A stretch of 64,000 nucleotides of DNA from Chiloscyllium plagiosum. Its lineage: Eukaryota. The stretch spans positions 27,163,933-27,227,932 of the forward strand of contig NC_057713.1 in the NCBI RefSeq assembly GCF_004010195.1, read 5' to 3'. The notes below the pieces were generated by a model. The model was not told the DNA's origin. It saw only the letters and a list, made by a program, of their open reading frames with translations, and made no database searches. Below are positions 3,802 to 64,000 of this stretch, in pieces (position 1 is the stretch's first letter; each line of letters begins with the position of its first letter). The position numbers and the translations under genes are program-made.

Positions 3802-4385
3802 ATGGTGTTAGAAGTCCCTGTGGTTACCGCCCCACCTGTCACAAGAGGCTGCATGGGCAGGGCAGTGTGGTGTTAGTAAATCCCTGTGGTTACCGCCTCA
3901 CCAGTCATGAGGGCCTGCTCAGACAGGGCAGCGTGGTATTAGTAAGTCCATATGGTTACCAACTCATTGGTCTTTGGGCTTGCACGGCAGGGCAGTGTGG
4001 TATTGGTAAATCGCTGTGGTTACTGTCTTGCCAGTCGCGAGGACTTGTTCAGACAGGGCAGTGTGGTGTTAGTTAGTCACTGTGGTTACCGCCTTGCCAG
4101 TCATGAGGGTCTGCTTGATCAGGGCAGTATAGTGTTAATAGGTCCCTGCGGTTAGTGCCTCGCCATTCATGAGGTCCTGCTCGGACAGGGTAGTGTAGTG
4201 TTAGTAAGTTCCTGTAGTTACCGCTTTGTTGGTCATGAAGGCCTGCATGGGCAGGGCAGTGTGGTGTTAGTAAGTTGCTGTGGTTACCGCCTCACAGGTC
4301 ATGAGGGCCTGCTTGGACAGGGAAATGTAGTGTTATTAAGTCCCTGTGGTTACCACCTCGTCAGTCACAAGGCTCTACACTAGCA
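3802..4385 (+). repeat. Tandem array of about 9 copies of a 66-bp unit in the ERV leader
   Basis: CAGGGCAGTGTGGTGTTAGTAAGTCCCTGTGGTTACCGCC-like units start at about 3858, 3924, 3988, 4054, 4120, 4186, 4252 and 4318, with a partial unit before these. Confidence 0.95.
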
Positions 4386-9912: not shown

Positions 9913-10910
9913 AGAGTCAAAGAGATGTACAGCATGGAGACAGACTCTTCAGTCCAATCCATCCATGCCGACCAGATATCCCAACCCAATCTAGTCCCAC
10001 CTGCCAGCACCCCACCCATATCCCTCCAAACCCTTCCTATTCATATACCCATCCAATTGCATTTTAAATGTTGCAATTGTACCAGCCTCCACCACTTCCT
10101 CTAGCAGTTCATCCCATACCCGTACCACCCTCTGTATAAAAAGGTTGCCCCTTAGGTCTCTTTTAAATCTTTCCACTCTCACCCTAAACTTATGCCCTCT
10201 AGTTCTAGACTCCCCACCCCAGGGAAAAAGCTAGGAAGGAGACCAGAATTGCACACAATATTCCAAAAGTAGCCTAACCAATGTCCTGTACAGCCGCAAT
10301 ATGACCTCCTAACTCATGTACTCAATACTCTGACCAATAAAGGAAAGCATACCAAACGCCTTCTTCACTATCCTTTCTACCTGCAACTCCACTTTCAAGG
10401 AACTATGAACCTGCACTCCAAGGTCTCTTTGTTCAGCAACACTCCCTAGAGCTTTACCATTAAGTGTATAAGTCACGCTAAGATTTGCTTTCCCAACATG
10501 CAGCACCTCGCATTTATCTGAATTCTGAATTAAACTCCATCTGCCACTTCTCAGCCCATTGGCCCATCTGGTCCAGATCCTGTTGTAATCTGAGGTAACC
10601 CTCTTCGCTGTCCACTACACCTCCAATTTTGGTGTCATCTGCAAACTTACTAACTGTACCTCTTATGCTTGCATCCAAATCACTTATGTAAATGACAAAA
10701 AGTAGAGGGCCCAGCACCGATCCTTGTGGCACTCCACTGGTCACAGGCCTCCAGTCTGAAAAACAACCCTCCACCACCACCCTCTGTCTTCTACCTTTGA
10801 GCCAGTTCTGTATCCAAATGGCGAGTTCTCCCTGTATTCCATGTGATCTAACCTTGCTAATTAGTCTCCCATTGGGAACCTTGTCGAATGCCTTACTGAA
10901 GTCTATATAG

Positions 10911-11134
10911 TCATGATTTGGAGATGCTGGTGTTGGACTGGGGTGTACAAAGTTAAAAATCACACAACACCAGGTTATAGTCCAACAGGTTTAATTGGAA
11001 GCACACTAGCTTTCAGAGCGATGCTCCTTCATCAGGTGATTGTCACCTGATGAAGGAGCATCGCTCCGAAAGCTAGTGTGCTTCCAATTAAACCTGTTGG
11101 ACTATAACCTGGTGTTGTGTGATTTTTAACTTTG
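10911..11134. mobile_element. Palindromic Penelope-derived insertion with a hammerhead motif on each strand
   Basis: Arms 10948-11039 and 11043-11134 are reverse complements with one mismatch and a TTG loop. Flanked by GAAGTCTATATAG and GAAGTCCATGTAG. Confidence 0.9.
11044..11078 (+). ncRNA. Minimal type I hammerhead ribozyme motif
   Basis: CAC-CTGATGA-A-GGAGC-atc-GCTCC-GAAA-G-CTA-GTG. The core is intact, stem II has 5 bp, stem III is the loopless palindrome AGCT and stem I is CAC/GTG. Confidence 0.8.
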
Positions 11135-13625
11135 AAGTCCATGTAGATCACATCCACTGCTCTTCCCTCATCAATCTTCTTTGTTACTTCTTCAAAAAAC
11201 TCAGTCAAGTTTGTGAGACATGATCTCCCACGTGCAAAACCATGTTGACTATCCCGAATCAGCCCTTGCCTTTCCAAATACATGTACATCCTGTCCCTCA
11301 GGATTCCCTCCAACAACTTGCCCACCACCGAGGTCAGGCTCACTGGTCTATAGTTCCCTGGCTTGTCCTAACCACTCTTCTTAAACAGTGGCACCATGTT
11401 TGCCAACCTCCAGTCTTCCGGCACTTCACCTGTGACTATCGATGATACAAATATCTCAGCAAGGGGCCCAGCAATCACTTCTCTAGCTTCCCACAGAGTT
11501 CTCGGGTACACCTGATCAGGTCCTGGGGATTTATCCACCTTTAACCGTTTCAAGACATCCAGCACTTCCTCCTCTGTAATCTGGACATTTTGCAAGATGT
11601 CACCATCTATTTCCCTACAGTCTATATCTTCCATATCCTTTTCCACAGTAAATACTGATGCAAAATATTCATTTAGTATCTCCCCCATTTTCTATGGCTC
11701 CACACAAAGGCCGCCTTGCTGATCTTTGAGGGGCCCTATTCTCTCCCTAGTTACCCTTTGTCCTTAATATATTTGTAAAACCCCTTTGGATTCTCCTTAA
11801 TTCTATTTGCCAAAACTATCTCATGTCCCCATTTTGCCCTCCTGATTTCCCTCTTAAGTATACTCCTACTTTCTTTATACTCTTCTAAGGATTCACTCGA
11901 TCTATCCTGTCTGTACCTGATATATGCTTCCTTCTTTTTCTTAACCAAACCCTCAATTTCGTGAGTCAACCAGCCTTCCCTTTCACCCTGACAGGAATAT
12001 ACTTTCTCTGGATTTTTGTTATCTCATTTCTGAAGGCTTCCCATTTTCCAGCCGTCTCTTTAACTGCCAACATCTGCCTCCAATCAGCTTTTGAACGTTC
12101 TTGCCTAATTCCATCAAAATTGGCCTTTCTCCAATTTAGAACTTCAACTTTTAGATCTGGTCTATCCTTTTCCATCACTATTTTAAAACGAATAGAATTA
12201 TGGTCGCTGGCCCCAAAGTGCTCCCCCACTGACACCTCAGTCACATGCCCTGCTTTATTTCCCAAGAGTAGGTCAAGTATTGCACTTTCTCTAGTAGGTA
12301 CATCCACATACTGAATCAGAAAATTGTCTTGTACACTTTTCCCAAGTTCCTAGCAATGCAGTATATATTCCTTTCCATCTAAACTATATATTCCTTTCCA
12401 TCTAAACCCTTAACACTATGGCAGTCCCAGTCGATGTTTGGAAAGTTAAAATCCCCTACCATAATCACCATATTATTCTTACAGATAGCTGAGATCTCCT
12501 TACAAGTTTGTTTCTCAATTTCCCTCTGACTATTGGGGGGTCTATAATACAATCCCAATAAGGTGATCATCCCTTTCTTATTTCTCAGTTCCACCCAAAT
12601 AACTTCCCTCGATGTATTTCCAGGAATATCCTCCCTTAGCACAGCTGTAATGCTATCCCTTATCTAAAATGCCATTCCCCCTCCTCTCTTGCCTCCCTTT
12701 CTATCCTTTCTGTAGCATTTGTATCCTGGAACATTCAGCTGCCAGCCCTGCCCATCCCTGATCCATGTTTCTGTAATTGCTATGATATCCCAGTCCCATG
12801 TTCCTAACCATGCCCTGAGTTCATCTGCCTTCCCTGTTAGGCCCCTTGCATTGAAATAAATGCAGTTTAATTTATTAGTCCTACCTTGTCCCTGCCTGCC
12901 TTGACTGTTTGACTCACTTCTGTTCTCAGCTGTACCCGTCTCAGATCGATCTCTTTCCTCACTATCTCCCTTGGTCCCACCTCCTCCACCTTACTAGTTT
13001 AAATCCTCCCAAGCAGTTCTAACAAATTTCCCTGCCAGTATATTAGTCCCCTTCCAATTTAGGTGCAATCTGTCCTTCTTGTACAGGTCACTTCTACCCC
13101 AAAAGAGATTCCAATGATCCAAAAATGTGAATCCTTCTCCCATATACCAGCTCCTCAGCCATGCAAAATTTTTAACAATGCCTCTTATGCTCGCATCCAA
13201 ATCTATTATATAAATGACAAAAAGTAGAGAACCCAGCACCGATCCTTGTGGCACTCCACTGGTCACAGGCCTCCAGTCTTCTAGTATGCATCACTGCAAA
13301 GCAACTCTTCATCGTACCTGTCTGTTCTGAGTTGTCTCCCATCACATTATTATGGCCAGCTGTCCTCTGAAGTGCAGATGGCATGTGGGGACACAGCTTC
13401 TTGATTTTTTTTTTCTGTTTCATTTTTCTCTAAACTTAGTCTGTAAGGATTTCTGGGTCTTTGTTCCTGTCCTGGACAGGGTTTTGGTCCGTACACCCCA
13501 CAGATAGAGGAGGAACCCTTTGAGAACTGAACCTCTAAATTTTCTACTGCCCACTTTCAGGCTGCAACTGCATGAATTATGTTCTAAAGGTCTAGCCTCA
13601 ATGTGTTCTTTCTTTGTATGAGACC

Positions 13626-18009: not shown

Positions 18010-18203
18010 AATAAAATAAAACAAATAATTGTGATACTGGAAATCATAAACAAAAATAGAAAATGCAGTAAAAAGTCGACAGGCCTGGCAGCATCGGTGG
18101 AGAGAAAGTATGGTTAATGTTTCAGGTCCAGTAAGTGTTCTAAAGAAGCTGCCAGGCCTACTGAGTTTTTCCAGCAATTTCTATGTTTGTTTCTGATTTT
18201 CAG
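18010..18203. mobile_element. Decayed inverted Penelope terminal-repeat fragment
   Basis: Degenerate inverted copies of the 28560-28680 tail. Confidence 0.6.
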
Positions 18204-18566: not shown

Positions 18567-18768
18567 GGATGTGCCGGTGTTGGACTGGCAAAGTTATAAG
18601 TCACACGAGACCAGTCCATTTGAAATCACAAGCTTTCGTAGTGCTGCCCTTTCATCAGGTGAAGCAATGTGCATGGTCTTCTCTGATGAAGGGGGTCAGT
18701 GCTCCAAAAGCATATGATTTCAAATAAACCTGTTGGACTATAACCCGGTGTCATGCGACTTCTGACTT
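18567..18768. mobile_element. Older copy of the 10911-11134 palindromic hammerhead family
   Basis: Shares GGTGTTGGACTGG, TTCATCAGGTGA, CTGATGAAGG and AAACCTGTTGGACTATAACC in the same inverted layout. Confidence 0.8.
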
Positions 18769-26426: not shown

Positions 26427-28680
26427 TAAGGAGAGACCTCTCCCAATCCAACCTGTCTCCCTCTGAACTAACTGCACTCCAAGTGCTTAGATCCAACCTT
26501 GACTTTGTTATCAAGCCTCCCAGTAAGGGTGGTGCTGTTGCAGTCTGGCGGACCGATCTCTACATTGCACAGGCTGAGCGCCATCTCTCAGGTACCTCCT
26601 CCTACCTCCCCCGGGCCATCACCCTACCATGGCACATCAGGCTGTTGTATCAGCTACAGTCATTGACCTCATTTCATCTGGTGATCTCCTCCCTACTGCC
26701 TCCAAGCTGATAGTCCTCCAGCCCTACATAGCTCGCTTCTAACTCCTCCCGAAAATCCACAAACAGGACTGCATAGGGAGACTCATTATTTCAGCCTGCT
26801 CCTGCTGCACAGATCTCAACTCTTCCTACATTGACTCAATCTTTTCTCCCCTGGTTCAGTCCCCGCCTACTTACATCCACGATTTCTCTGACACTTAATG
26901 CCAGTTTTAGAATTTCCAGTTTGCAGGCTCCAGCTGCCTCCTCTTTACTGTGTTTGTACAATCCCTGTACATGTCCATCCCCCAATAGGGTCTCTCTGCT
27001 TCTTCCTGGGCCAAAGGCATGAACCACCCCTACACACAACCACCCTCCTCCACTTGGCCGAGTTAATCCTCACCCTGAACAATTTCTCTTTTAACTCCTC
27101 TCACTTTCTCCAGTTCAGAGAGATGCCATAGGTATGTGCATGGATAGTTATGGTCTGTCTCTTTATCGGATACATAAAACATTCCTTGTTCCAGTCCTAT
27201 TCTGGCCCCTCCTCACAACTCTTTCTCCAATATATCAGTGATATAATCGGTGCTGCTTCCCTGTCTTATCCAAAATTGGAAAAGTTCAATGATTTTGCTT
27301 CCAATTTCCAACCCTCCCTCACTTTTACCTGGCCCATCTCTGACTCCTCCTTGCCATTCCTTGACATCTCTGATTCCATTTCTGGGGATAAACTAGCTAC
27401 CAATATCCACTATAAACTGACTGACTCCCTCAGTTAACTGGACTATACATCCACGCACCCTGTTTCCTATAAAGACGCCATTCCATTTTCCTAGTTCCTC
27501 TGTCTCCATCACATCTGTTCTGATGAGGCCAACTTCAACAAAAGAACCTTAGAAAAGTCCACCTTATTCCTCAACGGAGGACCCCCCAACACCATTATCG
27601 ACTGGACCCTCAGGTGGGTCTGAGCCATCTGCCGCACCACAGCCCTCAACCCCTCTCTTCCCCTTCACAACAGCAATATTGTTCCACTTGTTCTCACTTA
27701 CCATCCCACCAGCAGCCACATCCAGAAGATCATCAGCCACCATTTCCGCCACATCCAGTGAGATACAACCACCAGACACATGTCCCCCTCCTGTCCCTTG
27801 TCTGCCTTCCATAGGAGCACGCTTCCACTGGGGCACCCTCGTCCACTCTTCCTTCAGTACTCCCCCCTGGCACCTTGCCCTGCAACCATTGAAAGTGTAA
27901 CACCTGCCCACTTACCTCCTCCCTCCTCAGTATCCAAGGGCTCAAACATACCTTCCAGATGGAGCAGCATTTTACCTGCACTTCTCACAATTTAGTTTAT
28001 TGCATTCGCTGCTTACAATATAGTCTCCTCTACATTAAGGAAAACAAAGTGTAGATGGAGTGATTGCTTCACAGAATATCTATGTTCTGTTACAAAAAAG
28101 ACCCTGAGCTTTCAGTTGTCTATGACTTTAATACACCACCCTGTTCCCTGACAAACATCTCTGTCTCAAGCTTGCTGCAGTGCTCCAGTGTAACTCAGCG
28201 CAAGCTGGAAGAACACCACCTCATTTTCCACATGGGAACCCTAAAGACCTCTGGACTCAATATCAAGTTCAATACTTTTAGGGTCTGACCTCCTCCATGC
28301 CCTAGCCCTCTACCCCACACACCAGGCCTTGTTACCACATGGTCTGCCGTTACACATTGCTTATTGTTAGCCACTAATAGTCTCCATTAAGAGCTATTCA
28401 CTCTCCTTGTTGGATCGTTAAAACTCCTTTGTCTGTCCAACTGTTCTTCTCTCTCTTTGGCTCTGTCCCCACGTATTGTTTATTCCTTGCCCCTCCCCCA
28501 CCCTATTTTCTGCATATGAACCAATATTTTATTGTCTACCATCAGTTCTGAGGAAGGGTCACCAGACTCAAAGCGTTAATTTTGATTTCTCTTCACAAAT
28601 GCTGCCAGACCTGCTGAGTTTTTCAAACAACTTATGTTTTTGTTTCTGATTTAAAGCATATGCAGTTCTTTCAGTTTTAA
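26427..28680 (+). mobile_element. Penelope-like element, decayed (RT, GIY-YIG endonuclease and terminal repeat with hammerhead remnant)
   Basis: NLSPSELTALQVLRSNLDFVIKPPSKGGAVAVW, LPKIHK, LNNFSFN, YISDI (YIDD position), LPFLDI, FTCTSHNLVYCIRC...LYI and GLNI. CTGAGGAAGGGTC-acca-GACTC at 28548. Confidence 0.92.
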
Positions 28681-29585: not shown

Positions 29586-30831
29586 CCTTTATGTAATTGG
29601 CACTCTTACAAGATTGTGCTAAGTTATTGTTCCTTTGATTTATTTTTTTCAATATCCATTTCATTATTTGGACAAGAGCGAGAGATGTGAAGTGACCTAT
29701 TGCTCTTTTTTCTGTTGATATTATGAAAGCTTATGTTTAATTGCCACTTTTGTTGGGTTTGTAAGAAGGGCAGTGTTTCTTCAAAGGATTTTTTCAACAA
29801 CTACTTATTATCTTGCCAGTTTCGGCAACATTTCAAAGATTTGTGCCACAATACGTGGCTCTTTGTGTTTTTGTGAAGCTCCTTTGGGAAGTTTTATTTA
29901 ATCATAACACAGGCGCTACATAAATACAAATTGTTTTTGTTGAATTGACTGATTGCTGCACAAGTGGTAAAAGCAGGCATTACTATGATTTAGATGGAGA
30001 AGGAGGATCGACCAAATGTTCGGCTTTAATTGAATTCTCCACATTACAGTGGTAGCTACACTTCAAGAAAACCACATAATTGGCTGTAAAGCGCTTGCAG
30101 ACATACTGAGATTATGAAACATTCTTCTAAATCAGCGACAGCTGCCTAATTTAAATGAATCAGCAAGGTCCACTTAGCTGAGTGCCAAATGGTTTGTGTG
30201 TTCAACCCTCTGAATGATGCATTGCATGAACACTGTGGGTCTCGGCACCTTGTACCTGGAATAATGGAGAAGCAGACTCCCAATAGAATGCAATGTACTT
30301 TTCTCTTTAATCATCCATGAGTTGTGAGCATCATTGGCTAAGACAACCTTTACCGCTCACATCACTAAATACCCTGGAAATAGTAATGAGTGATGAGCTA
30401 ACTTCTTGAGTCCCTCAGTCCCTCAGAGTGGACGTATGCAAATAATGCCAACATATCCATCAGTCAGGAAAGGAATGAATATGAAAGGTGGTGAATTGAG
30501 TGCCAATCAAGTGAGCTTCTTTGTTCTGGATGACGTTAAACTTTTTGAGTACTGGTGGAGTGCATCCAACCAAAATATTCCATCAAATTCTACTTTGTGC
30601 TTTGTAGATGGTGGACAGGCACTGAGAGTCAGGAAGTGAGTTATTCACCATAGAACCACCAGCCTGCCTCTTTTAACTGTTGCTGGTCCAGTTCAGCGTT
30701 TGGTTGACAGTAACACCCAGGATCTTAATTGTAGGAGATTCTAAATGGTAATATTATTGAATGTCAAGAAGCTATAGTTGGCTTCGTTCTTGTTTGACAT
30801 AGTCTTTGTCTGATCCTTCAGTAGCATGAAT

Positions 30832-30992
30832 CTGAGGACTACAGATGCTGGAGATCAGAGTCAAGAGTGTGGTGCTGGAAAAGCACACCCTGTTAGGCAG
30901 CATCCGAGGAGTAAGAGGATCAACATTTCAAGCATAAGCCCCTCATCAGGAACATCACTCCTGATGAAGAGCTTATGCTTGAAACGCCGATT
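30832..30992. mobile_element. Penelope-derived inverted insert with two hammerhead motifs, inside an old LINE
   Basis: TTTCAAGCATAAGCCCCTCATCAGG pairs with CCTGATGAAGAGCTTATGCTTGAAA. TGAAT is present on both flanks. Confidence 0.8.
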
Positions 30993-34400: not shown

Positions 34401-35183
34401 ATCTGTTTAGTACAACACTATTATGTGTTATGAATAGTCCCTGGATGAACACCCATAATTTATGATGATCATGGTTGAGTAGAGATGAGCTGGCTCCACT
34501 TCTTTAATATTTTCTAATCAACCAGTTCAGAATGTTATGACACACCTTTGGGGCACCTGGGACTTGAACTTCGCCCTCCTGGTTCAAGGGTAAGGTTAGG
34601 GACATTTCCATTGTGCATCTTTATTCATTCCCTCCCTTAATTAGTCATAACAAGATTAGTTCAACAAAGAGTCTCTTTCCTTATGGATGCCTTTACCCAG
34701 CCCAAATGCACTTATGTTTTAAAAGGTGACAATTTAACCTTAACTTATGGAGAAACTGTGATTATTGACTACTACAGGGAGCGGTAACAGTAAGCATATA
34801 TATATTTATATTATATATTATACATCTATAAAAAATGAGATTTGAGTCCAAAAGATGAACATTAAAATGCAATTTGCAAGTCAGTCTTTGGCTTATCCAT
34901 GACAAATCGATTGTGAAATGGCACAGCTATTAAGGTAGTTGGTTTTGGTAGCACTAACATTGGCAGCACATTAGTCATTTGGAAATCTTGGTTTCGCAGT
35001 TAGCTCAAAGAAATTTGCTCAGTTTTCTTTAACAGTGGTGTTGCTGACTTGACGTATTTTCAGCAGAGGTACTTTATTTCTTTAACCACACATGCACAGG
35101 TGTCTAGATGTTTCAACGTCACAACACATTTTGGCAACAGTGGAACTTGAACCACAAACTTATACGCTGGCACACTATTCTCT

Positions 35184-35790
35184 AACAAAAACAGAAGTTG
35201 TTCAAAAAGCTCAGCAGGTCTGTCAGCATCTGTGCAGAGAAATCAAAGTTAACATTTCAAGTCAGGTGACCCTTCCTCAGAACTATTCTCTAACCTATTA
35301 GAAGGTAGGGACAATGGTTTCAGCAACTAGGAATTAGTGAGGACTGCAGATGCTAGAGAGTCAGAGTCAATAAAGTGTGGTGCTGGAAAAGCACAGCAGG
35401 TCAGGCAGCATCAGAGGAGCAGGAGAGCCGACCTTTCAGGCAGGATCTTTCATTGTATCTGGGGAGGGGGAAGCGGGCTGAGAATTAAATACGGGGAGAA
35501 GTGGTGGGGCTGGGGGAAAGATAGGTGGGTTGGTGATAGGTGAATGGAGGTAGGAGGTAATTGTGATATTTTGGTGGGAAGTGTGGAGCAGTAGGTGGGA
35601 AGGAAGATGGAAAAGTAGACAAGTAGATCAGGTCAAGAGAGCAGTGCTGAGTCAGAGAGTTAGATCTGGGATGGGGTAGGGGGTGGAGAGGTCGGAAAAT
35701 GGTGAAGTCAATGTTGAGGCTGTGTGGTTCTAGGGCCTCAACATTTGGGTCCTGCCCTCAGATACTGCCTGACACGCTGTTCTTTTTCCC
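35184..35790 (-). mobile_element. Two Penelope terminal-repeat fragments (35184-35283 and 35336-35790)
   Basis: Similar to 28545-28650 and to 44150-44510 (GTGAGGACTGCAGATGCT...GGAAAAGCACAGCAGGTCAGGCAGCATC). Confidence 0.75.
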
Positions 35791-38046
35791 GTGTCATACT
35801 TTATCGACAATGGCTTCAGTATGTCTTTACCAGCTTTTTTATATAGTTCTGAATGATAAATCATAAATCTGTTCTTAACCCAGAATTGTCTTTCTTTTAA
35901 TTCATAGCATGTCCATAGACTGGAACACAACCCATGGAAGATCAGAGTTCAGTTGTTTTGAATAGCCTTTTGTTTTGAGGTGTTGCTGTCTGAAGTTCCC
36001 TTGACACTCCTCAGGGACAACTTTCCATGATCTCTCCCAACATAATCCGTGCAGGAATTTTAGAATCCTGCTGAATCTACATGCACAGCAATCCTTTGGC
36101 TTTCTTTAAAAGAAAATATGTTGTTCTTAAAAATCCATAAGTAAATTTCGGATTGTGATTCATTTCATAATAGAAACTAAGCCATGTTTTACAGTGAGAA
36201 ATGTTCACTTATATTGATAATTCATAGGAACAGTAATTCCGTTCTGCATTGGCTTTACATTCTTTTTGCCTTCATGAAGGATTAATCAATGGTTGAAAAA
36301 TATTCAAATTTTTATTCTCTTCCCAACAGGCTGGTCTTTACAGTGTATAGGGTCATTAATTCTCACCACCTCGCTCACACCATTCCTCCAGGATTATGTT
36401 AGATTGTCATAGCAAGGATTGCAGCTTTGTTGGCATTGTGCTCTTGATTGACTGCTTGATATTACTTCATTGCAGTGAATTTTCAACTTTATTTTTTTTA
36501 GTCTATTACAGCAAGGCTTTGATAGATCTACCCAATTCCCCCTTGAGTGTCCAGTGCTGCATTGTTCTCTTTACATTTTGTCAGCTTTTCATTTTTTTTA
36601 TGAGTACATGAAAATCTATTCCCTCTGCATAAAGAATTTTATTTGTAGTGAGGCCTGAAGGCTCTTTCTAAAAAAAAAGTCATTGGTTATTATAGTTCTG
36701 TGATATTGATACTTTGCACATTCTTTATTTGTGAGTTGAAACTGACCTAATCCTCACTTAGAATTAGCAATCGTATACTCTTCAAAAGGGGTCACTGGAT
36801 ATTTAACCATTATTAAAAACCCTGGATAGTGTTATCCTGTTCTTACCTCAAAGACATTGGGATCACCAGCAGCACCCTTTTCACTGTGACTGCTGAGATC
36901 AGTAACTGAAAACCGACTAAAGACCTGGGCTATTAACTCTACAGCTCTCAAGTTCGTACAAAACCAAAAGCAGTGAGTCTATTCTAAAGTACAATCGATA
37001 TCAGCACGTGAAGCTAATACAATAAAAAGATGAACTTCAAAGCCACAGGTACCCTTCACTTTCACGCATGTTTTCGACATTTCTCATAAGCAGTAGGTGT
37101 TCCTCTCAGAGATGGAAGCATTGTGTATAAATATGATACCAACTTTATATGCTGCAAATTGTATTGGCCTGTTCTAGCTCCAACCACTATTCTGAGAGGG
37201 TTTGATTTTCATGCCAGCTAGTTACCATTATTGTCACCTTACCAGGCAGCAAATCCCCAGTGATCAGAGTGGTGGACCTTCCAGTGGTAATCCATGGGCA
37301 CAGCAATTGCTGCTGAGGATTCTGTTCATGAGCCATGCAGCCTTGTAATGGGAAGGCCGTTAATGAAAGCCTCCCTCAACATTTCCACATCTCCCTCACA
37401 CCACCCTAACCTCCAGCGTAGGGGACTCACTGGGAGGCGGCCATGATCTAACTGGTGATATCATCATGTTGCAGGTGGAGTGATTGGAAGAAAGTCAGCC
37501 AGATGGCTCTCATAGAATATGAGATCCCTGACTGGGGCTGTTATTCTGGTCCAATCGAGGTGTCCTGGCTGACAGACATAGAAGTTCGGTTCACTCCAGG
37601 ATCTGGCTCTGAGGAAGCTGAATCAGTGTCAAGGACTGTCCACGTGTAGATAAAGGGAGACTTGGTGATGAGATACCAGCCTCTGTGGAGTTATTTCAGT
37701 AGCGACAAGATAAAAGTGTGAGTTGGGATAAGTATTTCTGCCATCATAGTATTATTTGGGAAGCTTGACTCATTCAATCCTGTCTTTGGTGACTGGGCCC
37801 AGTATGTGGAAGGAATGTGTTATTCTTTCAAGGCAAATGACGTTGGGGCCGATGAAAAGCAATAAGTACTTCTCCTGATAGCTTGTGGACCCGGAGCTTT
37901 TTCGGTTCTTAGGAGCTGAACTTTCTCTGAGGCACCAGATACTAAAACCTTTCAAGAGTTGAAAGATTTAGTTAAGAAATATTATGTCCAAAGCCTCCTA
38001 AAATTCTGAGATGCTATCAATTTTACTTTGCAATTCAATAACTAGG

Positions 38047-38166
38047 AGAAAGTGAGGACTGCAGATGCTGGAGATCAGAGCTGAAGAAGGGCTTATGCCC
38101 AAAACGTCGATTCTCCTGTTCCTTGGATGCTGCCCGACCTGCTGCGCTTTTCCAGCAACACATTTT
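38047..38166. mobile_element. 120-bp Penelope-derived insert with a hammerhead remnant in Gypsy gag
   Basis: Perfect 16-bp target duplication CAATTCAATAACTAGG (38031-38046 and 38167-38182). Motif CTGAAGA-A-GGGC-ttat-GCCC-AAAA-CGTC, with core GAAA mutated. Confidence 0.9.
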
Positions 38167-41100
38167 CAATTCAATAACTAGGGAATCCATGTTGGGAATT
38201 TTGATGAGGTTAAGACGGCTGGCAGAGGAATGTGACCTTGGTTTAACCCTTAATGAGAGGCTGAGAGACCATTTTATTTGTGGAATTAGTGATGTAACCG
38301 TACAAAAATACTTACTAACTGAAGCCCAACTGGACTTCAAACAGGCACTACGACTAGCTTTATCCCTGGAAAGTGCGACGAGTGGAGTTGCAGGATATTC
38401 CAATGAGAGTGAACACCCTCGCCAGCCCCACTGAGCTTGGGAACACCACTCAAGTGAAGGCAATTCCAGAGCTTCACTCAGGACATATCCTGAGCAGAGG
38501 GATCCTCGGTCAGCCCACAACCAAACTCAAAACAAAGCCAAGCCTCATCCAAATGGTTAACATTTTCTTGAGGATCCAGGCCAGCAAGCTATTGTACTTG
38601 CTGCCAGTAATAGGACTCAAAAGAGTCCCACTAGACCTAAATGTAGTAAGAGAACTCATAGGCTGATATCCAGGAGAGTGCACACCCTGAAACATCTACC
38701 TACATCTGGTTTCAAACAGTTACGTCACTTAGCAATGTCAGAATCAAGCAAAATAAATATCTAATTAAATAGTCACCCCGTTCTAATGGAAGTCGATACT
38801 GTGTAGCCAAATTCACTCTGGACTTAAACTTTATGTTTATGCAAGACCCCAGCTAGACTGAGAACCTATACTGGGGAACCTTTACGGATTAAGAGTACAA
38901 CTTTGGTTCCAGTCTCTTTCTTATGAGAGGCAGCTGGTTCAGTTACCACCAATTATAGTAAAAGGCTTGAGCCCAAACTCGATGGGGTGAAATTGGTTGA
39001 GGAAGGTTCACCTAGATTGGCTCAACACTTTTTGATTAGAAAATGGCTGCTTGAGTCCTAATTAAATGCCCTGAAGTTTTTCAGGAAGGTCTAGGGACTA
39101 TCAATGGAACCAAGGCCACCTTCCATGTTGATCAGAAAGCAATTCCACAATTCTGCAAGGCCACCCAATGCTATTTGTCAAACAGGCAAAAGCAGAGGCA
39201 GAAACCAGAAGGCTGAAAGGTGAAGGAATCATCAAACCAATCCAGTTTGCAGAATGGGCAGCACCGGTCATATCGAACGTGAAACCCAATGGATCAGTTT
39301 GCCTTTGTGGGGATTTTGAACAAATGATAAACCACTTTACACAGCTGGATAAATGCCCAATCCCTCACACAGAGGATTTATACTCAAAGCTGACAGGGAG
39401 GCTGTCCTGCACGAAGCTGAACGTGAGCTATGTATTCTTGCGGCTAGATGAGGAACCTCAGAAGTGTACTGCAATTAATACCCATAAGGGTCTGTACCAA
39501 TATACAAGGTTGCCATTTAGGGTATCATCAGTCATTGCAATTTTTCAGCAGACAATAGAGCAAATTTTACAAGGTCTACCCTAGGTCACCATTTATTGAG
39601 ATGACATGCTACTAAAAGGGAAGACTAATAAAGAGCACTTAGAGAACTTGGACATGGACCTTAGCCATTTCTTCCAGGTGGGTGTATGACTTGGAAGGGA
39701 AACCTGTGCATTCCAGGCAACCCAGTAACCTACTCGGGTTGCAGAATAAACAAGGCCAGGTTACACCCATTGAAAGGTAAAGTGAGGGTGATTAAAGGTA
39801 TCCCGCCTCCCACGGTTGTACCAAAGTTTAGGGTTATCCTTGGGCTGGTGAATTTTAATGGGAAGCTTAGAAATAACCTGGCTTCCCTCCTGGAACCTGT
39901 GCATCAATTCTTAAATAAAAGGTCAGCCTTGGGAATGGTCCTGTAGCCAAGCCATGACTTTCAGGGATGTGAAGAAACAGCTTTCATCCTCTAATGTTTT
40001 GGCACAATATGATCCCAAGTGAGATCTATTGTTAACATGTGATGCCTCCCCATCTGGCATCAGGATAGTATTAGCTCATAGTAGCTGAACGGAGAGGAAC
40101 ATCCCATGGTGGCTAATGCAGAGCTAATGCAAATTTGCCCTGATAGAGAAGGAAGGTTTGGTATTCATATTTGGAGTCAGGAAGTTTCACCAATACTTTT
40201 ACGGTTGTAAATTTATAATCGTAATGGTCCACAAACCCCTGCTATGTCTACTTAGGGAGGACAAGGCGGTGCCGCCCATAGCTTCAGGCCAAATTCAGGC
40301 AGATACACCACCGACGGTACTGTCACTGGAAGAGTCCATAACGGTTTGAAATTTTCTGGATGCACTTACAGTAACAGCTGACAATATCAGACTTTGGACA
40401 CAGAAAGATCTTTTCCTGGTAAAGCTGGTGGTGATGGGGGAATCCAAAGGAGTGTCACAACCAGGATTGAAACCTGTTTGGACCTGGAGAAACCAGATCA
40501 CAGCAGAAGACCAGCATATCATTAGGGGGAGCAAGAGTGATTGTCTTCACCTATGATTCTGCCACCGTGAAGTGCACAGGGTCATCCAGTGTTGTCTAAA
40601 ATGAAGAGATTGGTGAGAATATATGTCTGGTGGCCAGGATTGGATGCAGACATAGCCGTGTTGGTGAGGCAGTGCCCAGAATGCCAATAAGGACAACAAT
40701 TGCCACCAGCAGCTCCCCTACATTCATGGAAATAGCCAAGTTAACCTTAGATTCAGTTACACATTGACTATGCAGGTCCTTTCACCGACTCATTGCTATT
40801 AGCCATTGTGGATGCCCACTCAAAGTGGCTGAACGTGCATGGAATCCACTCGTCAAACATGGGGACAGCAATGGAAAAACTGCGCACATCTTTTCCTAAA
40901 TGTGGACTCCCAGAAATATTAGTCACAGATAATGGGCCATTTTTTACCAGTAGGGAACTTAAGTATTTTGTAAAGTCTAATGGTATTCATCAAAAAGAAC
41001 AGCTCCATACCATCCAACATCCAAAAGTCTGGCAGAAAGAATAGTCCAAACTTTGAAGGCACACTTAAAGAAAAAGCCTACAATTCACTGGAGACTAGAT

Positions 41101-43989: not shown

Positions 43990-44146
43990 TCCACCCTCAA
44001 TTGACTGTCTGTGTGGAGTTTGCACATTCTCCCCATGTTTACGCGGGTTTCCTCTGGGTGCTCCAGTTTCCTCCCACTGTCCAAAGATGTGCAGCTTAGA
44101 TAGATTGGCAAGGCTAAGTTATCCATAGTGTCCAGGGATATCTAGG
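43990..44146 (+). mobile_element. HE1-like SINE fragment
   Basis: TGTCTGTGTGGAGTTTGCACATTCTCCCC core. Confidence 0.85.
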
Positions 44147-44149
44147 TCG

Positions 44150-44510
44150 AAGTGTGTGATGCTGGAAAAGCACAGCTGGTCAGGCAGCATCCGAGGAGCT
44201 GGAGAATTGACGCTATGAGCATAAGCCCTTCATCAGGAATGAGACTTATTGCTCAAGGGGTCTGAGAGATAAATGGGAGTTGGGGGCAAGGTAGCTGGGA
44301 ATGTGATAGGTGGATGAAGGTGGGGCTAAAGGTGATAGGTCAAAGAGGAGGGTGGAGCAGATAGATGGGAGGAAGATGGACAGGTAGGACAGGTCAAGGG
44401 GGCGGTGCCAAGTTGGAAGGTTGGATCTGAGATAAGGTGGAGGGGGGAGGGGAAATGAGGAAACTGTTGAAATCCGCTTTGATCCCATGTGGCTGGAGGG
44501 TCCAAAGGCT
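44150..44510 (-). mobile_element. Penelope terminal-repeat fragment with a decayed hammerhead
   Basis: Minus strand reads CCTGATGAAGGGCTTATGCTC at ~44217-44237, preceded by a pyrimidine-rich repeat body. Confidence 0.8.
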
Positions 44511-44993
44511 TCTTCCTTTGACTAATAATGAGACAACTTCAACTTAGAGTGTTCCTTTGTACAATACCAGGCCAGACTACTGCATTTATGTTACTATCTG
44601 TCTAGGGAACAGAAACATTTATTTTTAAAGTCAACAAACTATGAAATCCAGGGGCCTTAACTGAGTTAACAACATTATAAGATTGCACGGTTTTGAATAA
44701 GCAACAATAAATTTTACTATACAACAATATAACTGTAATACAATCTACAATACATGTACATTTTCTAACACCTAAAATTAGCATCAAGTAAATACTGTGG
44801 TAGAACACCACCAGCACACGTCACATAGCAAATGTGATCAAGACAGATCCCACAGATTTCTTCGAAACTTTTCCCAGATATACTAACATTATAAGTCATT
44901 AAATCTCATTACACATTCGAAGGGGTTACCATTCTTCATTTTTTTCGCCAATGTGGCCTTGAAATGTCCTTACAAGTGCCATTCCTTTATCAA

Positions 44994-45118
44994 GAGAAAG
45001 TGAGGGCTGCAGATGCTGGAGGTCAGAGCTGAAAATGTGTTGCTGGAAAAGCGCAGCAGGTCAGGCAGCATCCAAGGAACAGGAGAATCGACGTTTCGGG
45101 CATAAGCACATTTTCAGC
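44994..45118. mobile_element. Short Penelope-derived inverted insert
   Basis: 15-bp target duplication with one mismatch: CCATTCCTTTATCAA (44979-44993) and CCATTCCATTATCAA (45119-45133). Same family as 38047-38166. Confidence 0.88.
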
Positions 45119-46364: not shown

Positions 46365-49300
46365 CAGCAGAGAGCGGCGGGAGCTGGGGAGCGCAAAGCT
46401 GGTCGGGAAGGTAAGTGATTGCTATTAGAGAGGGTGAGTTCTAAACCCCAGGTCCTACAAAGTAGGGTATCCCTCCCTCCCTCCTCCTCTAACCTAAATT
46501 AAGAGTCCACAGACTTGCCACAAAAAGAGGGTCTAAGGAAGTTCAGATCGAAGAGTGAGGCTTCAGCTCAGGAATCTTTGACAAGGAGGTTGAGTGAAGT
46601 GATTACGCCACAGTTGAAGAGGGTGAAGACATGACTGCCCAGCTGGTTCAGTGTGCTACGTGCTTGATGTGGGAGGTCAACAACTCTGGTGTGTCTGGCT
46701 CATATATGTGTGGAAAGTGTGTGCACATTCAGCTATTGACCGAGCATATTGCAGCGCTGATGAAAGAACTCGAAGACCTTAGGCTCATTCAAGAGAACGA
46801 GATCTTTCTGGACAAGACCTTCAGCGATGTTATTACACCAATCATGCCAGAAGAGAGCAGAAGAGAGCAGACGATGAGGAAGACAGAGAGGAGACAGGTG
46901 CAAGAGAGCCCGGGAGAAGTACCTGTCAGGAACAAGTTAAAGCTTTTGGAAACAGTAGAGACTGATGACACTGCCAGTTCGCAAGCCAATGTTACCTCAG
47001 GGAGATTGCTTGTGTCTTCCCCAGTGAACACATATCTGAAGTACCCATTTAATTCCTCTGCCATTTCTTTGTTCCCCATAATATATTCCCCTGTTTCTGT
47101 TTTCAAGGGCCCAATTTTAGTCCTAACCATTTTTTTGCCTTGCACATACCTAAAAAAGCTTTTACTATCCTCCTTTATATTATTGGCCAATTTACCTTCG
47201 TACCTCATCTTTCCTCTGCGCAAGTTGGCGCAGAGGCAGAGCGGAAGAGTCGGACATCGCACAGAGCCGTGGTAATAGGGGACTCCATCGTGAGAGGAAC
47301 TGACCGGGGTTTTTGTGGGAGCAGGCGGGACTTAAGGATGGTGTGTTGCCTTCCTGGTGCCAGGGTGAAAGACATCGCGGACAGAGTGCAGGAAATTCTC
47401 AAGGATGAGGGTGAAGAGCCAGAGGTGGTGGTACATGTCGGCACAAATGATTTCGGGAAGAAGAGGAGGAACATACTACAGCGGGGCTTCGGAGAACTAG
47501 GAAGAAGGCTGAAAAGCAGGACGCCCAAGGTGGTTATCTCCGGTTTGCTTCAAGTTCCTCGTGCTGGTATGGCCAGAAACAGGGAGATAATGGACTTGAA
47601 CGTGTGGTTGGGGAACTGGTGCAGGAAGCAAGGATTTAAGTTCTTGGATCACTGGGGTATATTTTGTGGTAAGCATAAATTCTACAAGACAGACGGTTTG
47701 CACTTTAATAAGTTAGGGACCAACATTCTGGCAGGCAGGTTTTCTACTGCAACACCGCTACATTTAAACTAAGTAGCGAAGGGGAGCGGACAAACTGGAA
47801 GTTTAAAAAGGAAATTGAAGGGAAAGTTAGAACAAGAGAAGTCAAGAAAGACAACTGTATCAAAGAGGCATAAAACTCGGAAAGGGATCATGCTGTAAGG
47901 TTGAGTGAAATAGGGGTTGATGGGAAGGATGAGAGCAGCCACAAATTAAAAATACTATACATGAATGCACGAAGCATTAGACATAAGATGGATGAGCTTG
48001 AGGCTCTTTTGGAAATTGGCAGATACGATATTGTGGGGATAACTGAGACGTGGCTTCAAGTGGACAGGGCCTGGGAAATGAATATTCAAGGATACACGTG
48101 CTATAGTAAGGACAGACTGACGGGCAGAGGGGGTGGGGTGGCCATGTTGGTAAGGGATGATATTCAGTNNNNNNNNNNNNNNNNNNNNNNNNNNNNNNNN
48201 NNNNNNNNNNNNNNNNNNNNNNNNNNNNNNNNNNNNNNNNNNNNNNNNNNNNNNNNNNNNNNNNNNNNNNNNNNNNNNNNNNNNNNNNNNNNNNNNNNNN
48301 NNNNNNNNNNNNNNNNNNNNNNNNNNNNNNNNNNNNNNNNNNNNNNNNNNNNNNNNNNNNNNNNNNNNNNNNNNNNNNNNNNNNNNNNNNNNNNNNNNNN
48401 NNNNNNNNNNNNNNNNNNNNNNNNNNNNNNNNNNNNNNNNNNNNNNNNNNNNNNNNNNNNNNNNNNNNNNNNNNNNNNNNNNNNNNNNNNNNNNNNNNNN
48501 NNNNNNNNNNNNNNNNNNNNNNNNNNNNNNNNNNNNNNNNNNNNNNNNNNNNNNNNNNNNNNNNNNNNNNNNNNNNNNNNNNNNNNNNNNNNNNNNNNNN
48601 NNNNNNNNNNNNNNNNNNNNNNNNNNNNNNNNNNNNNNNNNNNNNNNNNNNNNNNNNNNNNNNNNNNNNNNNNNNNNNNNNNNNNNNNNNNNNNNNNNNN
48701 NNNNNNNNNNNNNNNNNNNNNNNNNNNNNNNNNNNNNNNNNNNNNNNNNNNNNNNNNNNNNNNNNNNNNNNNNNNNNNNNNNNNNNNNNNNNNNNNNNNN
48801 NNNNNNNNNNNNNNNNNNNNNNNNNNNNNNNNNNNNNNNNNNNNNNNNNNNNNNNNNNNNNNNNNNNNNNNNNNNNNNNNNNNNNNNNNNNNNNNNNNNA
48901 ATTTGCAATTTGAGAGGGAGAGGGTACAGTCGGAAGTGACAGCATTTCTGTTGAATAAAGGGAATTATGGAGCTATGAGGGAGGAGCTGGCCAAAGTTCA
49001 ATGGTGCAATACCTTAGTAGGGATGACCGTGGAGGAACAATGGCGGATATTTCTGTGTATAATGCAGAAGTTGCAGGATCAGTTCATTCCTAAAAGGAAG
49101 AAAGATTCCAGGAGGAGGCATGGGCGGCCGTGGCTGACGAGGGAAGTTAAGAAACATATAAAGTTAAAAGTATAACATAGCAAAGATAAGTGGGAAAACT
49201 GAGGACTGGGAAGCTTTTAAAGAGCAACAGAGGATTTCTAAGAAAGAAATACGCAGAGGAAAGATGAGGTACGAAGGTAAATTGGCCAATAATATAAAGG

Positions 49301-49439
49301 AGGATAGTAAAAGCTTTTTTAGGTATGTGCAAGGCAAAAAAATGGTTAGGACTAAAATTGGGCCCTTGAAGACAGAAACAGGGGAATATATTACGGGGAA
49401 CAAAGAAATGGCAAAAGAATTAAATGGGTACTTCAGATC
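46365..49439 (+). mobile_element. Young CR1 LINE, 5' part (UTR, ORF1, endonuclease), 3' truncated, spanning an N gap
   Basis: ORF1 from ATG 46631 has CATC..CGKC and the SGNH motifs GDS, GTND and DGLH, ending at 47772. ORF2 has LYMNARSI and IVGITETWL. CpGs are well retained. Confidence 0.93.
46631..47772 (+). pseudogene. CR1 ORF1 (zinc finger, leucine zipper, SGNH esterase) disrupted by an inverted ORF2 piece
   Basis: ORFs 46631-47275 and 47140-47772 are the two halves. The intervening ~46986-47218 is antisense ORF2. Confidence 0.88.
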
Positions 49440-63444: not shown

Positions 63445-63580
63445 AAATAAAACAAAGAATTGCAGATTTTGGAGATCTAAAACAAAAACAGAAATTGCTG
63501 AAGAAACTCAGCAGGTTTGGCAGCATCTATGGGAAGAAAGCAGGGTTAATGTTTCAAGTCCAGTGACTCTTCTTCAGAAT
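63445..63580 (-). mobile_element. Penelope terminal-repeat fragment with a hammerhead-like core
   Basis: Minus strand reads CTGAAGA-A-GAGTC-actg-GACTT-GAAA-CATT; homologous to 28545-28680. Confidence 0.8.
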
Positions 63581-64000
63581 AGATTTCAATGATCATTTTT
63601 AATATTGGAGTGCCCTAAATTGCAAAGTGTCACAGTGATGACCATTCTATTCTGTTTCCGTCAGTCCTAACTTTGGAAGGGCCCATTTCATGTGTCACAT
63701 CCTTACTCATATTAACCTTACTGTGGCCTGTTGTGTGAAATTGCCAACTTAGGTGCAGTTTTGCACTCTGTGCTAAAGTCATAAATAAGGTCACCAAGCT
63801 TCAGTTCATATCAGATCCTTACAGAAAGAAGAGATATGTATTTCTGGCTTTGATTTGACCAGAAGACACTGAAGTGAAAAAATAGCTCTAAATCATACAC
63901 TATACAGCATTCCTACATAATCCTTCTTTTAAAAACTAAACTATCACATTGATGTAATTCTCTAGATAAAGATCTTAAGGTTTGAAGTGCTTTACTGGCT

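Follow-up and report, generated by a model that had tools for sequence, protein, structure and literature searches.

The closest described counterparts of the hairpin analysed here are insertions of EN+ Penelope-like elements (PLEs); these and the other published systems are cited from the portions of the papers that were covered. EN+ PLE insertions resemble our locus in having an inverted, 5′-shortened copy beside a direct copy, a tail at one end only, a short target duplication, and a putative TATA box and initiator (Inr) in the pLTR; their one-sided tail measures 30–40 bp (PMC8557442, PMC3846280). They differ in that here the element body is usually absent and the turn between the two copies is concentrated at one position, where an extra G is present. 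In the covered portions of these papers the inversion is explained by self-priming and not by two run-off cDNAs. The origin of the inverted and tandem repeats and of the one-sided tail is called unresolved in the portions available (PMC8557442, PMC11167929). Inverted pLTR, tail, and duplication are standard PLE features, and the feature itself is of a known kind.

The Poseidon element PAc of Anolis was studied in vitro (Frangieh 2024, PMC11167929). As proposed for the insertions described below, both strands are cut and extended, two RT start sites bound the tail, and uncleaved RNA is used, so that extension does not need ribozyme cleavage. PAc belongs to the Poseidon clade and its ORF starts in stem II, whereas here the ATG lies at +121 and the linker is of the Neptune type. 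The covered portions describe no cap run-off or joining step for PAc; Fig. S2 of that paper maps insertion ends and may bear on the run-off model. Twin priming of L1 offers another likeness, since a second reverse transcript is primed from the other DNA end and an extra G marks complete 5′ ends (PMC11702581, in part). However, L1 priming takes place at poly(A) and the pieces come from different parts of the RNA, while here both represent the same leader. Animal non-LTR retrozymes are likewise related to the PLE pLTR, non-coding, and equipped with a type I hammerhead, but form head-to-tail arrays (10.64898/2026.07.22.740005, in part), in contrast to the head-to-head, dispersed, and variable copies found here. 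The fly element, in the part of the paper covered, has a TATA-less internal promoter (PMC2377424), unlike the TATA-bearing repeat of this genome.

Opposite-strand hammerheads and minimal hammerheads have already been published (PMC4209133, in part). The minimal ones share with ours the lack of a stem III loop, the palindromic 15.2–16.2 positions, an unpaired base between 9 and 10.1, and the G10.1–C11.1 pair. In Schistosoma, the opposite-strand pairs are 100–700 bp apart, whereas the cores described here are 11 nt apart inside a hairpin; the covered portions of that paper contain no shark family or end analysis. No published cap run-off or strong-stop model for PLEs was found in our search, which covered mainly openly accessible main texts. 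In LTR elements, minus-strand strong-stop DNA is a short cDNA that begins within the leader and extends up to the cap, and the U3-R-U5 terminal repeat contains a TATA box, the transcription start, and a poly(A) signal. Here, in contrast to LTR strong-stop DNA, priming would be by target DNA and not by tRNA, and the products would be integrated in pairs.

The window, i.e., the whole 64,000-nt stretch of Chiloscyllium plagiosum DNA that was analysed, contains a hairpin with two 92-nt arms that are 99% complementary, differ only at position 11015, and are separated by a 3-nt spacer (Table 1). This geometry was reported correctly in the initial annotation, as were the intact plus-strand hammerhead core (CTGATGA at 11047–11053 and GAAA at 11068–11071) and the minus-strand core with a single stem II substitution. 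GCTA of the plus core ends at 11075; the minus core starts at 11035, and its substitution is C>T at the last stem II base, giving a G·U pair. The 13-bp imperfect flanking duplication was confirmed as well, with two differences between the copies. Intact copies of the host LINE have this sequence only once, which identifies it as a true target-site duplication, and each side has acquired one change since insertion. The minus arm stops at −8 followed by G and overlaps the start of the plus arm by these two bases (here and below, signed positions are numbered from C3 of the hammerhead core). The annotation had missed the 37-nt one-sided tail, which ends in the parent start codon (10914–10912, minus strand) and whose parent homology extends 3 nt inside the duplication. 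The fold-back that it described as an older copy is a real hairpin, but the similarity given in Table 1 points to a related family or to a subfamily, not to a copy. As a single locus, the window hairpin is ordinary debris. The host LINE, presumably CR1-like judging by its motifs, is itself rearranged, with a piece of the RT region present again at 13162–13279, upstream of the endonuclease part.

Table 1. Positions of the hairpin, its parts, and related features in the window.
Feature	Positions	Strand	Remarks
Decayed host LINE	10312–13290	−	ORF fragments; RT coding region split by the hairpin insertion
Target-site duplication, left	10898–10910	+	13 bp; single in intact LINE copies L168 and L178
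One-sided tail, end of the parent 5′ leader	10911–10947	−	same tail enters the ORF ATG in L182, L188, L193, and L198
Tail-bearing arm, sense on the minus strand	10948–11039	−	
ATTAAA polyadenylation-type hexamer, minus arm	10990–10995	−	same motif in a parent copy: poly(A) reads 12–15 nt downstream
Minimal hammerhead core, minus	11007–11035	−	G·U at stem II base; predicted cut after 11007
Loop TTG, 3 nt	11040–11042	.	
Putative transcription start, A at 11043 (position −8), with the untemplated G at 11044	11043–11044	−	both bases common to both arms; by analogy with the L1 cap G (PMC11702581, in part)
Tail-less arm, −4 to +87 relative to the core	11043–11134	+	
Minimal hammerhead core, plus	11047–11075	+	CTGATGA-A-GGAGC/GCTCC-GAAA-GCTA; stem I CAC/GTG (3 bp); cut predicted after 11075
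ATTAAA hexamer, plus arm	11087–11092	+	
Target-site duplication, right	11134–11146	+	first base common to the tail-less arm
Older fold-back, related family	18567–18768	.	67–76% alike; turn differs

The sequence of the hairpin arms is that of the 5′ leader in a Penelope-like element present in this genome, with RT, GIY-YIG endonuclease, and a Neptune-type linker, in agreement with the origin proposed initially. The parent was located by an upstream walk that reached the end of the GIY-YIG domain and then near-complete elements. One of these, L166, contains pieces of RT and endonuclease with a CX4CxxC linker (CHGGRCKTC) and the same inverted-arm layout around 2.9 kb; long inverted forms are also represented by L081 and L134. 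The ORF motifs YIDD and YLIRC..WYIGET of the parent were taken by us as marks of RT and GIY-YIG, respectively. A match to RVT_1 was obtained in L168 (E 2.1e-10), while Pfam gave no match at E ≤ 0.01 for two L166 pieces and the best result of a PDB search had an E-value of only 0.95. The closest protein homologues of the parent come from bamboo sharks (84–93%), and distant ones carry PF00078 and PF01541. In four 5′ copies (L182, L188, L193, and L198), the arm and tail pass straight into the ORF, with the ATG at +121, and the partner element sharing this terminus was thereby found. Since the tail is confined to the leader/ORF junction, the window hairpin represents two leader copies. The family has the properties of an EN+ PLE: a single ORF with RT and with GIY-YIG endonuclease at the C-terminus, pLTRs in direct and inverted arrangement, a one-sided tail, and a target duplication. 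A CX2-5CxxC linker, which the covered part of the classification gives for Neptune and Nematis (PMC8557442), precedes the GIY-YIG motif.

Both strands of the hairpin contain CTGATGA-A-GGAGC-loop-GCTCY-GAAA-GCTA with a 3-bp stem I. The candidate minimal type I hammerhead recognized in the initial annotation, with a palindromic AGCT that could suit dimers, is present: the core CUGANGA/GAAA/UH, stem II, the palindromic 15.2–16.2 positions, and the base between 9 and 10.1 were all found. A hammerhead scan of the fetched loci, which had been picked for this PLE family, gave 225 matches and 0 after shuffling, so the motif here is not a chance match; 15.2/16.2 pairing was seen in 204 of these matches. 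The stems covary between families (GGAGC/GCTCC with AGCT, GGGC/GCCC with ACGT, and GGGTC/GACCC with ACGT), while within the family of the window hairpin stem II shows mostly CpG decay and 0 compensatory changes. An Rfam search matched no hammerhead family, and its matches to MIR845_1 and bantam, below gathering scores, were rejected as generic hairpins. The supposed competition between cleavage and hairpin formation proved lopsided. The antisense arm is transcribed first from either side, and the predicted energy of the duplex (−174.5 kcal/mol) is far stronger than that of the ribozyme stems (−8.8 kcal/mol), which predicts that cleavage is switched off. On these energies, the ribozyme in the hairpin RNA should be silenced by its own antisense. 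A turn or truncation at the cleavage site was considered and rejected, as no pile of arm ends was found at +29 (4 of 171 arms at +27 to +32). A U6-type T-run joined at the cut site gave 0 matches with the one pattern tried in this family, which is a weak test. At least two other families are represented in the window by stubs and fold-backs (18037–18203, 28541–28671, 30809–30990, 35168–35442, 38029–38168, 44115–44236, 44977–45118, and 63454–63584), several of which have a minimal hammerhead of their own, with GGGC/GCCC or GGGTC/GACCC as stem II and ACGT as palindrome.

The family was counted across the 3.56-Gb genome with exact-match patterns, so that all counts favour young copies. A 35-nt tail pattern was found at 11,280 exact sites, and a pattern of two arms no more than 30 nt apart at 1,778 sites. 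Among the first 100 tail sites in position order, an inverted arm was adjacent in 71, 31–1,500 nt away in 12, and farther in 2, and was lacking in 15. Thousands of such hairpins have been left by the Penelope-type element in this genome. The first 50 two-arm hairpins by position had 45 different turns, as judged by eye, and the fixed loop position implied by the idea of a propagating unit was thus contradicted. Two of the 50 had the turn of the window, which occurs exactly at 122 sites genome-wide. The first 30 of these exact-turn copies had one tail-bearing arm each, on the left in 14 and on the right in 16, with an internal restart in two. A unit copied whole would hold its tail on one side; assembly at each insertion was therefore inferred, and each hairpin was likely built anew when it was inserted. 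An internal restart in the arms, in which a short copy of the leader start is followed by a full one, was observed in L223, L229, and L193, as expected for re-priming by RT or template jumps. Two hairpins about 474 kb apart in opposite orientation (L243 and L244, on G000:C1) have an almost identical complex turn, perhaps due to local duplication or to a rare hairpin copied whole.

The outer ends of the arms are at two sites about 38 nt apart, with modes at +84 and +122, the latter at the start codon. The tail-less end was located at +79 to +92 in 64 of the 71 adjacent fold-backs. These modes agree with the pair of RT start sites that delimit the tail in the in vitro system, as described in the covered part of that work (PMC11167929). 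A target duplication of 10–19 bp was found in 39 of 47 scored hairpins, 29 of the 76 having been skipped for mutated anchors. The arm ends overlapped the duplication by means of 2.3 and 2.5 nt, values obtained without a shuffled control and for which no significance is claimed. The inner ends of 171 arms were distributed as follows: 34 further upstream than −14, 8 at −14 to −10, 27 at −9 to −7, 21 at −6 to −4, and 27 at −3 to +1. In the 50-hairpin set, 26 of 100 arms ended at A(−8), and the next base was G in 25 of these 26, where the parent has C; after the other ends G was found in 34 of 74 (p = 2e-6). After removal of the places already counted, the tail sample retained only 4 arms that ended at −8, with G in 3 (p = 0.15), a number too small for confirmation. 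Confirmation came from genome-wide patterns, with 1,117 arms ending at −8 and 477 at −7. In the first 100 listed for each, which partly overlap the 50-hairpin set, the next base as read by eye was G in 90 at −8 and in 26 at −7 (p = 4e-21). Ends at −10/−11 are also frequent (14/100). A further 3,612 arms pass upstream beyond −8, and 20 of 100 tail arms extend past −14; arms past −8 need read-through RNA or a template jump.

Promoter-like signals accompany this edge. Of 16 long arms, 12 have TATAAA 30–32 nt ahead of −8, and this position is itself placed in TCCA(C)W, which we take to be initiator-like. The untemplated G was read as a copied cap because in L1, according to the part of that study covered, complete and capped 5′ ends bear an extra G (PMC11702581). 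By this analogy, −8 is likely the cap site and transcription start. No pile of molecule starts was seen in the about 2% of the poly(A) single-cell run X21 that was read. The initial annotation had held that variable loops would reduce the family to ordinary Penelope truncation; variability was indeed observed, but “ordinary” does not quite describe ends that cluster at a likely cap site.

Taken together, the data make it probable that the hairpin is a PLE insertion in which two short cDNAs copied from the capped 5′ leader were united head to head. This reading is based on the identity of the arms with the leader, the two outer sites, the inner ends at −8 with G, and the 10–19-bp duplication. 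The element nuclease would make a staggered cut in the target, and both DNA ends would prime on the leader, one at each site (+84 and +122). RT would then run about 95–130 nt to the cap and copy it, and the two cDNA ends would be united by end-joining. The hammerhead would be copied too, since it comes first in the element mRNA, and the hairpin insertion is probably a dead-end by-product and not a ribozyme device. A snap-back origin, in which one cDNA would fold at its 3′ end and serve as its own template, or self-priming of the element on antisense RNA, as proposed for rotifer Penelopes, appears unlikely. Self-priming is a published proposal (PMC3846280, in part), one can draw the turn of the window hairpin as a loop of 3 nt, and private variants are common to both arms. 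In 73 of 76 pairs, 55 variants were shared, against a mean of 11 and a maximum of 29 in shuffled pairs; this excess favours one source RNA or locus, and fits DNA fold-back or later conversion too. On the other hand, of 71 hairpins, 30 have a tail-less arm that extends upstream beyond its partner by at least 8 nt, and in 13 the tail arm does so, which means that neither can in every case have been copied from the other; in the 30, with the tail on the opposite arm, neither could template the other. The tail-less end is moreover fixed near +84, both arms of L040 end at −8 with G, and a 2-nt indel differs between the arms in 9 of 73 pairs (by eye). This GT indel was rejected as proof of two RNA templates, since the L265 and L238 pairs share other variants yet differ there.

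Against the joining of two leader transcripts, one may also suppose that long inverted insertions were shrunk by central deletion of an unstable palindrome, or that the arms are random 5′ truncations. Palindromes are generally unstable and the long inverted forms do exist, but this origin is quite improbable, as it leaves unexplained both the sharp −8/−9 edge in the arm-end distribution and the replacement of C by G that occurs at a single position in all four upstream variants. The claim of a fixed non-autonomous ribozyme hairpin of the MITE or retrozyme type, copied as a unit with cleavage balanced against dsRNA, is largely refuted, and we assign it a very low probability. The exact turn common to 122 sites speaks for it, as do the 40 best matches, 95–98% alike over the full length; these had been ranked by likeness to the query, and the impression of a fixed loop that they gave was discarded as ranking bias. 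The position-ordered sample contained the window's turn only twice, the tail changes side even among identical-loop copies, and the duplication varies from 10 to 19 bp, unlike a MITE. The hairpin is head-to-head and single at this locus, the family is dispersed in the 100 sampled sites, and no head-to-tail array as in non-LTR retrozymes was found. The predicted fold, furthermore, buries the ribozyme core, and arm ends do not pile up at the cleavage site.

The position of the poly(A) site was determined from run X21 alone, a poly(A) single-cell run of which about 2% was read and which is labelled as the same species as the DNA runs but may differ from this genome. Among 2,522 reads, a loose A-run followed +57 in 257 and +60 in 324, i.e., 12–15 nt past ATTAAA (parent copy L188:888-908, G000:C2). 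A genomic A-run at this site gave 0 matches in this genome. The reads may represent host transcripts ending at scattered copies. The more than 11,000 scattered copies could serve as portable polyadenylation sites for host transcripts. Combining the poly(A) site with the putative start suggests an LTR-like order of the repeat: U3 with TATA, R from −8 to +60 with the ribozyme, and U5 with the priming sites. As a tentative extension, PLEs might replicate as a LINE/LTR hybrid. The pseudo-LTR would be a genuine U3-R-U5, with TATA, the cap at −8, a 68-nt R that holds the hammerhead and the poly(A) site, and two priming sites in U5. Both target ends would prime strong-stop cDNAs from the leader, full copies would require synthesis to jump from the 5′ R onto the 3′ R, and the thousands of hairpins would be left where this failed.

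The value of the family is in its mechanistic signature, which gives base-level predictions for the start site, the cap-derived G, the two priming sites, and the poly(A) site, and the existing in vitro PLE system could be used to check them. A run-off origin also accounts for paired opposite-strand hammerheads in genome scans and calls for caution in describing them as ribozyme devices. Two other repeats were noted in the window. A 66-bp tandem array at 3803–4367 (8.6 copies, 74% matches) adjoins an N stretch, and a LINE-like inverted pair of 187 bp (47034–47220 and 49252–49438, 98% alike) flanks an N stretch and is possibly a recent inversion or an assembly effect.
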